Assembly (NCBI RefSeq): GCF_055900595.2
Contig: NZ_CM148325.1
Length of the DNA stretch: 64,000 nucleotides
Reading direction: 5' to 3' (one strand)
The position numbers are program-made. Shown here piece by piece: positions 1 through 6,000 of the stretch (its first letter is position 1; each line of letters starts with the position of its first letter).

Positions 1-3000
1 CAGCCGAAACATCAGTATTCCACGCCATACAGACGGCGCCTGACCATGTGCTGATGCAGGTAAAATGTTTCACTACAACTGTTCGGGTTGCTATGCAACG
101 AAACAGCGATTCTCACGATCTTTAACTGCAACGTTTTTCCGCCTGAAAGCTGACTGCCTCCTGCTGAGGTGGGAGGCTATGATTCAGTGCGTTTATAGTC
201 TCCGGGGTATGCATGTACCGGAGCATACCATTTCTGGTGGATAACAAGCCGGCACATTCAGACTGCAGTGAAGATGGAAGCACCTGGTTGTGAAGAACGT
301 TTCTGCCCGTGGCTGCTTCGCATCATCAATGGTATTCATACCCGCTCAGAAATGACCGGGTGCTGAAGCCCTCCGTTATCGCGCAGTATAATGACGTATA
401 TGATCTGTGGACGAGTGAGCGGCGTGCCTGATGTACGCCGCTATTACTGTATTTTACCACAGGGCTGGTTTTCTGCTGCCAGCCCTGTGGTTCTCAGACA
501 TCAACTGTGAGCGGCATCAACCGATGTACGGTATGCCATAAGCACGTACTGATCCATCAGATTTGTCAGTGGTTCACTCTGACCCTGACGTGCAATGATC
601 CATTGCTCCAGATCTTTTTCTGATTTGTGTTTCAGGTTTTTCGTCCAGTCGTCAAGGCTGTTTCCGGTCATTAAGTCAAGCCAGCAGAGCCAGACCAGTT
701 TGAGACGTAACTCCGTGCCGCCAAACTGACGGAAGAGGCTGATCAGTTTGTTTGCCAGAGAATGTTGCTTCAGGCGCTCACATTCAGACAGCAGGATCCC
801 TTCCAGCATCGGATGATGAACCAGCAGGTGTTCGCTGGTGCATAAATTCACCACCAGATCATCATCCAGGGACGGGGAGCTCCGTTTGTCCGGACCATAA
901 ATCAGCCGGTGCAGACTCTGGGGAACGATGGCAATCTCCGGTTTTTCGCCATTGAATGACACCCACCCGGGCGTCAGATTATGGAAATAGTAGATATTCG
1001 GATGACACACGCCCCATGATACGGCGTGCCGGGTGAAGCCGGTCAGCCATTTCTGGTAGTTTTCATGGAGCAGCTCGTAACGGGTCTGATACTGTTGTTT
1101 CATTTTCATATTCCTCACGGGGGATAACAGGCAGCAGAGCGCCGCCGGCAGGCCGGAGATTGCGTCTGCTGTGGGCGAAGGGTTAGTGGTTAAAAATTAC
1201 GGACGGGACTGTGCAATACGCGCCTGCAGCCAGGCTTCCACTTCACTTTTCAGCCAGCGGGAGCTGCGCCCCATTTTGATGGGCGCAGGAAAGCCCCCAT
1301 CTTTGATGAGTTTGTCAAACCACTTATCGGTTAGGCCGGTCAGTTGAGTGATAAACGCCATGTCGACCATCTGGTCATCCATCAGCGAAACTGGGGTAGC
1401 CATGAGAATGTTCCTCCGGATGTTGTTAAACCAGCCGGTGTGGTCATGAAAACAGCGCGCCACCTTCACCGGCATAACAACCGGGGAGAAACGTAAAAAA
1501 TAATCGGGAATGCGGCTGTCCGGAGATAAACGGGGGGATTGCGATGGCAGAGCCGTAGCGGAATCCCGGAGGGGGGGGTTGCGAAAAGATGCTTCCGCAC
1601 GCACGCGCGATAAAGAGGGGATAGTTTTCGTGAGGACAGGGAGAGAAGCAGGCGTTCTGATAATTGCAGAGTTGTTTTCGGAGGTGGTTACAGTGAGTCA
1701 GCCCGTTCCTGGCGAGCAGGAGACTGATATCACCGATGGGATAAGGTTGTCTGATTGGTATTATAAATATAAGAAGTCATCAGAGAGTAACGTAAAGGAT
1801 TTGCCAGAATAACCTAAGAGAGTAAATCTCTCCGGTAACAGAGCGCTGTGAAGCATTCTGTATCAGAGTGCAGATACATGAACGCTGATGCGTAAAATCA
1901 GCAGTGACACGCCAGCTCCCCCTATGCCCATTCCTGTATAAGACATGAACTGAGTGTATTAATGCTTCTGCCCTGAGACTGAGCCGGTGAGTGAGGGGCT
2001 GAGAAATCCCTCTTGACACAGCTCTAACCAGAAATACTTCCCCGGTTGTTGCGGTGCGTCCGGATCCCCGATAACGGAACACTAAGGCTGTATTGCGGGA
2101 CACCGGGTAAGTAGCAGCCCGTAAGGCGTTCTGTCAACGCCAGAAAAAATGATTTCCCACACGCGTTATAGACTCACTCCTGTGGACCTGGAAGCCCGTA
2201 ACTCTGCGTTTGCCCACTGACTGACGGAACTGACCGCAAATTTTACGAGTGCGTGCTGGGCTTCAGTCTGGTCACCTGAGCGTTCGGTAACGGAGGCGCG
2301 GGCGGTAATAGGCTGATTTTCAGGTATTACCGGCTTACAGCGTGTGGTTGATATTGAGGGGCTGTGAGTTTCGCGTATTTGTCAGAAACCCAGACGAGTT
2401 TTCCTGTATGGGACGAAATAAGGCAGCGGCAATACCTGGAAAAATTTAATATGGTATGAAGGAGAACCTGTCGGTTACGCTTAATATACCCGGTACACTG
2501 TCAGCTCAGGGGATACATGAACCGTTATCTCACCAGCTACACAGTATATACACACTGACGCTGACAGTAGTCAGCAGGACCACAATAATCAGTGCCAGCA
2601 GTATGGTAACGATACGGTCTGTATTCCGGTAATAGCCGAAGGGGTCGACAGAACCACAATACGGGCAACACACTGTATTATGAGTAATCGCGTTTCCACA
2701 GTCCCTGCACTTCTTTTTGCGTATCACCATCACTCCCTCCTCACAGCCTTACCCGTAACCGGTTTTTTACATTAAAAAACCAACGCTGAAAATTCAACCG
2801 TCAGTCCGGAGACGACCGTTCGGGTTATCACAGAGTGCCTGAGACAGTGTCCTGCCGGAGGTCACTTCAGGGACTCTGCGCATTTTTTACGACGTGGCTA
2901 TTCCGTATGAACCATACGGAGATTTAACCATGACCTACAAATACAACCCCTTCTGGCAGCAACGTATTCGTGAGACGGTGCGGCACGCACTGAATGTTCA

Positions 3001-6000
3001 TCCCCGCCTGACGGCATTGCGGGTTGACCTGCGTTTCCCGGATGTACCGGCAGCAACGGACGCAGCTGTGATATCCCGCTTCATCAATGCCCTGAAAGCC
3101 CGAATCGACGCTTACCAGAAACGTAAGCATCGGGAAGGTAAACGCGTGCATCCCACAACCCTGCATTACGTCTGGGCCCGGGAGTTTGGGGAGTGCAAAG
3201 GTAAAAAACACTATCACCTGATGCTGCTGGTTAACCGGGATACCTGGTGTCGTGCCGGTGATTACCGTGCTCCGGGATCACTGGCCGGGATGATTAAACA
3301 GGCGTGGTGCAGTGCCCTGGGAGTGGATGTCGGGTGCCATGCCACACTGGTGCATTTTCCGGCCTGGCCGGCGGTGTGGCTGGAACGCGATGATGACACT
3401 GGCTTTCAGCAGGTGCTGGAACGTGCTGACTATCTGGCGAAGGAACATACCAAAGCTCACTGCACCGGTGAGCGCAATTTTGGCTGTAGCCGGAGTTGAG
3501 CACGACTGGCGCGCCAATACCCGGCAAACCAAAAGTATGGGTTGTTGTCTGGCGGCAACGATGTATCCACTCGCCCACTGACTGTTTTTTACGTCAGTGT
3601 TCCATTGTGTGACAACCACAGTGCTGTAACAGCAACCAGCCTGCTTTACCCAAACTCCAGTCCAGATTTTAACTGAACCGCCATTCACACCCTGACCACG
3701 CTGCCCGTACCGGGACGGCTGTTGCCTGCGTGTCGTCTGGCGGCTGAGGAATATGACTATGTACGCAAAATCCTTTATCGCTCTTGATGGCAACGGACGT
3801 CTGACGGGCGCCCGTACTGCACAGGCCGCACCTTATGCTAACTACACCTGCCACTTGTGTGGCAGTGCACTCAGATACCATCCGCAATACGACACTGAAC
3901 TTCCCTGGTTTGAACACACTGACGACAGGCTGACAGAGCACGGTCAACAGTGCCCTTATGTCAGGCCGGAGCGCAGAGAAATACAGTTGATTAAACGTCT
4001 GCAGCAATTCGTACCGGATGCCTTACCCGTGGTGCGTAAAGCCAGCTGGCACTGCAGACAATGTCACCACGATTATTATGGGGAGCGGTACTGCACACAC
4101 TGCCAGACCGGAGGATTCAGTATTCCCCGGACAACTCAGGAGGAAATATGCGAATTCTGAACTGTTATATGGCGAATGACAGCAAAGGCCATTTTGTTAC
4201 GGCGAAAGAAGCAGCGAAGCACAACCGCCAGGACGTTTTGTGCTGTGTGTCCTGTGGATGCCCGTTAACACTTCAGCGGGGCAATGACGGACAACCACCG
4301 TGGTTTGAACATGACCAGATGACTGTCGCTGAGAAAATCCTGCTGCGATGCACCTGGCTTGACCCGGCAGAGAAAGAGGCCCGTCGTTTGCATCTGCAGG
4401 GTATGACGGTTCCGGATTATACGGTGAAGGTGAGAAAGTGGTTTTGTGTGATGTGTGACGAAAATTATGAGGGGGAAAAGTGCTGCCCGAGTTGTGGTAC
4501 CGGGGTATACAGCAGGGAGGGGGGGCAGGAGGGCAACTGGAAGGATAGGAACTGAGCGGTTCAGTCGCGGAAATCAGTTGCAGAGCTGTAATGATATCTC
4601 CGGGAGTGCTGCGTTGGTAGGGGCATCCCGGGATAGAGAAATTTTAGCACTTTGCCCTGAATGATTGTAGACGTCCCGAGTACTCGTACCGGTCTGAGTT
4701 ATTACAGTTAGATATTCACTTTTTCTCCCGCATACTTCACATCTGTCAACGACGGATGAAAAGTGGTTCTTCCGCAACCTGGGTGGAAGAAAATGGATGA
4801 AACTTTCTGGCGAACAAGGATCTAAGCTGTTTTAAGTTATGGGCAACGCAATGCACTCTCTTAAGACACTTCTACAGTTACCTTGCGGATGGCGATGCAG
4901 TCGACAAATTATTAGCTCTGACGGTATAACCCTCCATCTCCACGGAAAACGCAAAACAGCACAATGTCCTGAATGCTTTAAGCGTAGCGACTCTGTTCAT
5001 AGTTGTCGTCGGCGCCGGATACAGCATCTACCCTGCTCAGGGCAGACGCTATGGCTTGTATTTTCCGTCCGCCACTGGTACTGCCGTAACCCGGCTTGTT
5101 CACGTAAAATTTTTGCCGAGTCGCTTGCTCCCTTCGCCAGTTCACACCAGCAGTCTTCACAGGCGTTACAAAATTAACAACGTCAACTGGGATTAATAGC
5201 TGGAGGTGAGGCTGGAAAACGGGCTGCAACGGCAGTGGGTCTCCGTTGCAGTGCTGATACTCTTCTTCGCAGGCTTATCAATACCCCGGAGACGAAACAG
5301 TCAGGCGCGCCTCATGTCGGTATTGATGAGTGGGCGTGGCATCGGGGCCACTGCTGCGGTATGTTAATAGTCAATCCTGATACTCACCGTCCCCTCGTCC
5401 TGCTTCCCGGCCGTGATCAGCGTACGCTGGCGACCTGGTTCAGAAAATATCCGGAAATACAGGTTGTCTCGCGTGATCGCAGTGGAGTCTATGCGACAGC
5501 AGCACGTGAAGGTGCACCTCAGGCCAGACAGGTGGCCGATCGATGGCACCTGCTAAAAAATATTGGTGATGAGCCTGAACGAATGATGTACAGATATATG
5601 CCTCTGATACGTCTTGTTGTCAGAGAGTTATCACTGAAGAAATCACCTGAGCCAGAAATATCTGTGCCTGTAGCATCGCTCCGTCGTCTGGAACGCCTTA
5701 AACAGCACATCCGCAAAAAACGGCATCAGCGTTGGACAGAGGTTATGGCCCTGCATAACAAGGGATGTAGTTTCAGGGAAATATCCCGTATTACAGGCCT
5801 GTCGCGAGTGACAGTCAGTCGCTGGGTGGGTTCAGGAACATTCCCTGAAATGTCAACTAGGCCTCCAAAGCGAGGGCTTCTGGACCCATGGAGGGAGTGG
5901 TTAAAAGAGCAACGAGAATGTGGTAATTATAACTCCGGCCGGATATGGCGGGAAATGGTGGCCAGGGGGGTTACAGGCAGTGAAACCATCGTCAGGGATG

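Follow-up and report, generated by a model that had tools for sequence, protein, structure and literature searches.

A 66-residue putative membrane-anchored zinc-ribbon protein encoded divergently from a YagK/YfjJ-family gene in an Escherichia coli genomic island

We analysed a small open reading frame (ORF) on the minus strand (2530–2730) of a 64,000-nucleotide stretch of DNA, referred to here as the window (NCBI RefSeq assembly GCF_055900595.2, contig NZ_CM148325.1), where it lies back to back with a gene of the YagK/YfjJ ('inovirus Gp2', hereafter Gp2-like) family. This ORF is very probably a real gene for a membrane-anchored zinc-ribbon protein. The complete explanation that we favour, in which the gene is an accessory component of a genomic island and its product would be a membrane-tethered zinc-ribbon binding module facing the cytoplasm, has in our estimate a probability of about 0.55. 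The gene is an ordinary and widespread accessory gene, not an overlooked new system.

The small gene and its product

The coding sequence extends from an ATG at position 2730 to a stop codon at 2530–2532 and specifies 66 amino acids (aa). Two GTG codons are alternative starts, one at 2733, which would yield a protein of 67 aa, and one at 2727, which is the sole start codon common to all alleles; the ATG reads ATC in some of them. An AGGAGG Shine–Dalgarno sequence (2736–2741, minus strand) is located 5 nt before the ATG and is left open in the predicted mRNA fold, where the 5′ region is unstructured (z = −0.62). The initial annotation had described exactly this combination of a 66-aa frame, a strong ribosome-binding site (RBS), a zinc-ribbon motif and a single C-terminal helix, and we found all of its elements. 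Its remark that proteins of this kind seldom receive an annotation and are readily overlooked is not borne out in this case. The ORF is already in RefSeq as a hypothetical protein (WP_001297900.1), proteins identical to it are listed for at least 1000 contigs, and 'predicted nucleic acid-binding Zn ribbon protein' is the name given by some sources.

The protein, MVIRKKKCRDCGNAITHNTVCCPYCGSVDPFGYYRNTDR followed by IVTILLALIIVVLLTTVSVSVYILCSW, begins with a basic head (residues 1–39, charge +4) that carries cysteines in the arrangement C8-x2-C11-x9-C21C22-x2-C25. Two CxxC-type knuckles, CRDCG (C8-x2-C11) and CPYCG (C22-x2-C25), would provide the four Cys ligands by which a zinc ribbon is recognized. 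The assignment is made by motif and not by family score, because all Pfam matches fall below the curated cut-offs; the best of them is zf-ChsH2 (E = 0.009, 16.2 bits versus a cut-off of 23.2), Zn_ribbon_3 reaches 13.6 bits versus 27, and the best NCBIfam match has 16.4 bits versus 32. In the remainder of the protein, residues 40–58 make up the best 19-aa hydrophobic stretch (grand average of hydropathy, GRAVY, 2.99) and AlphaFold2 predicts a helix spanning residues 34–65 with a predicted local distance difference test (pLDDT) score above 90. The hydrophobic helix comprises about 25 residues and leaves one to three residues to the C-terminus. A terminal hydrophobic stretch of at least 19 aa preceded by a positively charged N-terminal part is the sequence signature of a C-tail anchor, and the protein has both. 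We infer that it is anchored in the inner membrane by its C-terminal tail with the head in the cytoplasm, the side predicted by the positive-inside rule and the one that offers the reducing compartment needed by Cys4 zinc sites.

Selection on the ORF was assessed in five alleles, one from the window, one from Salmonella and three from diverged copies in E. coli. Codons 1–39 have ratios of nonsynonymous to synonymous substitution rates (dN/dS) of 0.06–0.29 at dS values of 0.23–2.2, and the variable sites of the ORF are distributed over codon positions 1, 2 and 3 as 8, 13 and 26. The annotated frame has no stop codons and a pooled ratio of nonsynonymous to synonymous polymorphism (pN/pS) of 0.24; each of the five other frames contains 2–15 stops across the alleles (pN/pS 0.34–2.0), so that none of them is open. 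Taken together, the low dN/dS of the head, the excess of third-position changes and the closure of the other frames indicate that the ORF is protein-coding and a genuine gene. The Shine–Dalgarno sequence is kept in every allele, and the head has a net charge of +3 to +5 in four of the five. The part encoding the helix shows strong divergence and insertions or deletions (indels), and the products are still 64–66 aa long with GRAVY values of 2.8–3.0; this retention of hydrophobicity and length despite the divergence fits selection for a membrane anchor and not for a particular sequence. Values of dN/dS above 1 in the helix region were dismissed as a sign of positive selection, the nucleotide alignment being ambiguous there, with indels. 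The initial annotation had made the case for the gene depend on conservation of the 66-aa frame in close relatives. Purifying selection on that frame was found and is the dominant pattern, but a minority of them carry inherited frameshifts or deletions.

The ORF is present in 3494 of the 5426 complete E. coli genomes (about two thirds), in one to six copies each and 6426 copies in all, and its range is confined to E. coli and Shigella with rare occurrences in Salmonella. ATCC 25922 and S88 are among the carrier strains. No match could be confirmed in 100,044 species-representative genomes scanned for the peptide pattern. Searches with tblastn retrieved a single partial record from phages and, from plasmids, a few island fragments or mislabelled chromosomes, and a scan of IMG/VR returned only two E. 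coli-type loci, one of which is split by the insertion sequence (IS) IS66. A profile search of 1.84 billion representative proteins yielded 52 matches, mostly variants of the E. coli protein. A handful of relatives of 59–80 aa share its layout (K/R-C-x-x-C-G, ten residues, C-P-x-C-G-S-x-D-P-F-G, basic residues and a helix), and once these distant sequences join the alignment C8, C11, C22 and C25 are the only invariant columns. One distant relative with the zinc ribbon, the DPFG motif and the helix is encoded in an F-type tra operon (locus L044, 6001–6219), on the opposite strand between the traH-side and traG genes. In E. coli itself there is a second, unrelated-looking 67-aa family (P0279) of the same minimal zinc-ribbon–helix layout.

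Further searching ties the family to proteins that carry Pfam zinc_ribbon_2 (PF13240) or Zn_ribbon_3 (PF13248), in which an N-terminal ribbon is commonly followed by a transmembrane helix. Like these, the small protein has two CxxC-type knuckles about 10 residues apart, a basic linker and one helix; unlike them, it scores below the cut-offs, ends at the helix, has the extra C21 and a conserved DPFGYYRNTDR linker, and is found only in islands of the E. coli lineage. ElaB, YqjD and YgaM are C-tail-anchored inner-membrane proteins of E. coli that are chromosomally encoded, associated with stress or ribosomes, and devoid of a zinc ribbon. The small protein resembles them in having a soluble N-terminal part, cytoplasmic as in these proteins if our topology is right, and a single helix at the extreme C-terminus, and has no sequence relationship to them. 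Weak matches to three PHROG families of phage proteins (phrog_38187, phrog_10292 and phrog_14275, E values from 1.6e-5 to 1.3e-3) cover residues 7–59, that is, the ribbon and the helix; the profiles are 136–178 positions long, only their first ~50 positions align, and the further C-terminal part of the phage proteins is lacking in the small protein. A sequence search of the PDB produced zinc-ribbon matches at chance level only. The small protein represents, in minimal form, an architecture of zinc ribbon plus helix that is common but uncharacterised.

Island setting and the divergent gene

The ORF is located in the regulatory/replication region of a CP4-type (tyrosine-integrase/AlpA) E. coli genomic island. 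Positions 2300–4700 of the window are 100% identical to E. coli M160133 (NZ_CP022164), and the segment is present in 3826 of the 5426 complete E. coli genomes. In M160133 it belongs to an island remnant, as the initial annotation had proposed; this remnant is IS-riddled, adjoins cobUST and ldtA and contains dynamin/GTPase genes, IS100, an AlpA regulator, a pseudogenised ISL3, fragments of ggt and php, and IS3. Every E. coli or Salmonella copy examined has the same gene order, in which a YfjI-like gene, a gene for a 200-aa hypothetical protein, alpA, an hha paralogue and the small ORF are followed, divergently from the latter, by the Gp2-like gene and the DUF7828 genes. The spacer between the divergent pair measures 196 bp in the window, close to the 200 bp originally reported, and 196–203 bp across the copies examined. 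The gene for the AlpA-family helix-turn-helix regulator, part of the island backbone, occupies 1197–1403 (minus strand). The 200-aa hypothetical protein (501–1103, minus strand) is a constant companion of AlpA in these islands and has no match in Pfam, PHROG or PADLOC. Convergent with the small ORF, the window has a degraded Hha/YmoA-like pseudogene with an in-frame stop and a frameshift (2134–2274, plus strand), and all other copies examined in E. coli and Salmonella have an intact hha paralogue there.

The divergent gene (2930–3499, plus strand) encodes a protein of 189 aa that matches PF11726 (YagK_YfjJ_C) over the full length of the profile (E = 1.1e-47, 162.5 bits versus a cut-off of 25.8), which bears out its earlier assignment to the YagK/YfjJ family. 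The start originally placed at GTG 2894 probably makes the gene too long; RefSeq uses 2930. Residues H94-Y95-H96 and Y168-x-x-K171 are invariant in 23 family sequences that diverge to 38% identity and include the K-12 proteins YagK and YfjJ, and a C-terminal RNFGCS motif is likewise kept across the 23 members. Conservation of the HUH and YxxK motifs identifies the protein as HUH Rep-like; it has the metal-binding motif, the catalytic Tyr (YxxK) motif and the nuclease fold by which HUH endonucleases are recognized. It does not reach the cut-off of PF23343 (REP_ORF2-G2P, the inovirus gpII family; 23.8 bits versus 27.8), a PDB sequence search gave no homologue, the gene has no inovirus context and its match to a PHROG replication initiator is weak (E = 0.013). 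Compared with HUH Rep proteins such as AAV Rep, parvovirus NS1, RepB of pMV158, SIRV1 ORF119 and those of Helitrons, the Gp2-like protein differs in its size of 189 aa and in being without a helicase domain. Genes for 'inovirus Gp2-like' proteins are listed as core genes of integrase/AlpA islands of Pseudomonas that can be transduced by a jumbo phage (PMC12595487), and it is this island context that sets the gene apart from the HUH Rep genes of phages or plasmids (PMC12595487).

The intergenic region contains two inverted repeats that are kept in all alleles. An AT-rich perfect palindrome, GGTTTTTTA-CAT-TAAAAAACC (2761–2781), is likely to be an operator; it overlaps a promoter-like site on the plus strand, TTTACA-16-GAAAAT (2766–2793). 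Promoter-like hexamers of both divergent genes are overlapped by this palindrome. In the leader of the Gp2-like gene there is a second repeat, TCCGTATG-AAC-CATACGGA (2902–2920, plus strand), whose 3′ arm holds the GGAG Shine–Dalgarno sequence of that gene and whose outer stem (2893–2934) covers the AUG. The predicted RNA fold of this leader has a free energy of −15.7 kcal/mol (z = −2.1). Leaders of other genera retain a TATGAA core, around which the Shine–Dalgarno-containing arm is paired to a 5′ arm unlike that of E. coli. A consensus RNA structure computed for the leader across genera had no pairs and covariation of a hand-drawn stem was only weak, so that the hairpin stays an observation within the lineage. 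The repeat could serve translational occlusion or could be an operator or a DNA site for the HUH protein.

Downstream of the Gp2-like gene are two genes that correspond to the Cys-rich pair of the initial annotation. They encode proteins of 133 aa (3759–4160, plus strand) and 135 aa (4148–4555, plus strand, overlapping the preceding gene by 13 nt), each with a DUF7828 domain and a Zn_ribbon_11 domain above the Pfam gathering scores (E = 2.8e-31 and 7.7e-31 for DUF7828 and 1.3e-9 and 7e-18 for Zn_ribbon_11). The two proteins are paralogues with 31% identity (E = 2e-15). In many E. coli genomes an IS110-family element lies between or inside these two genes, and the repeated insertions point to a recurrent insertion site. 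The 259 bp between the Gp2-like gene and the pair (3500–3758) have no annotated gene and no Rfam match; alpA occupies this position in other genera, and a 171-aa antisense ORF that spans the gap (3278–3793, minus strand) is probably spurious.

Orthologues of the Gp2-like protein at ~65% identity occur in Rouxiella, Serratia, Klebsiella and Pectobacterium, and neither hha nor an ORF for a zinc ribbon with a helix is found in the gap upstream of their genes. In these other genera alpA comes after the Gp2-like gene, and DUF7828 genes follow too in the Serratia and Klebsiella loci. The position of alpA directly downstream of the Gp2-like gene was seen in Serratia, Klebsiella, Enterobacter, Cedecea and Pectobacterium; the orthologous alpA of E. 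coli (67% identity) is upstream and in the opposite orientation, which shows that the island backbone has been rearranged. The small ORF is also missing from the yagK and yfjJ loci of K-12 and from 14 YagK-type loci in IMG/VR. Past the immediate leader, upstream of the Gp2-like start, the spacers of the other genera have no similarity to that of E. coli, and a de novo origin of the ORF from an orthologous spacer is therefore unsupported. As the small ORF and hha are both missing from the module of the other genera, the two probably arrived together.

The suggestion that the small ORF and the downstream pair form a compact module of small metal-binding proteins proved to be overstated, the ORF being absent from the orthologous modules (Gp2-like plus DUF7828) in other Enterobacterales. 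This absence, together with the survival of an intact Gp2-like gene in copies where the small ORF is broken, argues that the ORF is not integral to the module. It is a lineage-specific accessory that neither the HUH gene nor the two downstream zinc-ribbon genes require.

Possible functions of the small protein

The small ORF is monocistronic, has a strong unstructured RBS and shares with the HUH gene a divergent promoter region from which it reads outwards; the RBS of the HUH gene is predicted to be buried in a hairpin. In the explanation that we favour, the head would be a small module that binds nucleic acid or protein on the cytoplasmic side of the membrane, and the protein would tether or sequester a partner there on behalf of the island, acting neither as a pore nor as an enzyme. 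Island DNA or RNA, the HUH protein, and a host factor or one from an incoming element are candidate partners. Such a tethering or sequestering role ranks first among the functions considered, and we put it forward tentatively. The more specific proposal that the protein tethers the HUH nuclease, or DNA of the excised island, to the inner membrane, or else excludes a competing element there, has a low likelihood. Literature searches on the WP accession, the peptide string, YagK/YfjJ, DUF7828 and PF11726 found no functional information.

Several observations weigh against the favoured explanation. The AlphaFold2 pLDDT of the head is just 53–63, and no zinc-ribbon model of Pfam or NCBIfam scores the protein above its curated cut-off. 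It is the architecture alone that suggests tethering, and the head is tied to no particular partner. Among the window-type copies, about 5 of 49 in an evenly spaced sample of the best matches are broken, so that selection is patchy and the gene dispensable in part of the population. The defects seen are diverse. Three copies with shared single-nucleotide polymorphisms have inherited the loss of 1 nt from the A-run of codons 5–6, two carry an allele with V20 deleted and a 4-nt duplication near the end, and single copies have a 61-bp deletion, a frameshift in the helix or an insertion of IS66. In addition, C25 is missing from a widespread allele found on at least 1000 contigs (CCPGYVS), which means either that the protein can do without a canonical second knuckle or that this allele is in decay.

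Such losses would be expected if the ORF were non-functional, either because a longer zinc-ribbon membrane protein is decaying and has left this remnant or because the frame is kept only by overlapping regulatory signals. The several inherited null alleles, the allele minus a zinc ligand and the remnant state of the island in the window all point in this direction, and the match of the long PHROG profiles by their first ~50 positions makes a longer ancestor conceivable. However, the third-position excess and the low dN/dS are specific to the annotated frame, the stop position and the length of the helix are held (64–66 aa) despite indels, the Shine–Dalgarno sequence is conserved, the exact protein is found on at least 1000 contigs, and many independent proteins of 59–80 aa have the same minimal architecture. 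We consider a lack of function unlikely. The recurrence of inactivated alleles is equally a frequent property of toxic genes, and a small membrane toxin or an abortive-infection or exclusion peptide (type I toxin-like, holin-like or entry-exclusion), which would stabilise or protect the island through the damage or block that its helix causes in the inner membrane, is the strongest of the rival explanations, if still an improbable one. Like the type I toxins Hok/Gef, TisB, Ldr and Ibs (PMC12648545), the product is a small membrane protein with one strongly hydrophobic helix, of a type often carried by mobile elements; it has a strong RBS, its home is a mobile island, and related elements carry toxin–antitoxin modules. 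Unlike in those toxins, the constraint is strongest on the soluble zinc-ribbon head and not on the helix, the opposite of what a membrane-damaging peptide would lead one to expect. The mRNAs of type I toxins usually sequester their Shine–Dalgarno sequences, whereas that of the small ORF is predicted to be open. An antisense promoter-like site inside the ORF (2561–2589, plus strand, 10 of 12 consensus positions) would speak for a toxin, but its sequence differs between alleles and it was dropped as a conserved promoter. Neither the allele comparison nor an Rfam scan of window positions 1–12000 revealed a conserved cognate antisense or overlapping small RNA, the scan (E up to 1) giving no small RNA, riboswitch or antitoxin RNA. 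PADLOC matched no defence system to the small protein, the Gp2-like protein or the zinc-ribbon pair, and genomes may hold up to six copies of the gene with no identifiable antitoxin. As for exclusion, the distant relative in the F-type tra operon comes from a region where exclusion genes occur, but the small protein would expose almost nothing to the periplasm, unlike typical exclusion proteins.

A little less probable than a toxin is regulation of the divergent promoter by a membrane-tethered protein, whose head would bind the AT-rich palindrome or the leader hairpin and thereby control both the HUH gene and its own gene. The back-to-back layout, the perfect conservation of the palindrome (2761–2781) over promoter-like elements, the +4 charge of the head and its database label as nucleic acid-binding are consistent with such a role, and the occluded RBS of the HUH gene suggests tight control. 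Nonetheless, genera without the small ORF have conserved both the Gp2-like gene and its leader elements, so that control of this gene does not depend on the ORF, and the gene remains intact in copies with a broken small ORF. AlpA and Hha/H-NS are more obvious candidates than the small protein to bind this AT-rich region, and a monomeric ribbon of 39 residues is a poor candidate for recognition of a 21-bp palindrome.

Implications for integrase/AlpA islands

A 2025 review of bacterial small membrane proteins mentions zinc nowhere (PMC12648545), from which it seems that no member of the zinc-ribbon-plus-helix architecture has been characterised. The expected pay-off from the small ORF is modest, because it is already annotated, is not needed by its neighbours and is frequently inactivated. 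If the proposal that the protein tethers excised island DNA or the HUH nuclease, or excludes a competitor, were true, it would be the founding characterised zinc-ribbon small membrane protein of bacteria, an innovation of the E. coli lineage inserted together with an hha paralogue, and CP4-type islands would gain a membrane-based control step in replication, transfer or defence. Integrase/AlpA islands are very common, and the small ORF and the HUH core gene lie in the part of them that is understood least (PMC12595487); a phenotype for either of them would help to explain how these islands are maintained or mobilised.

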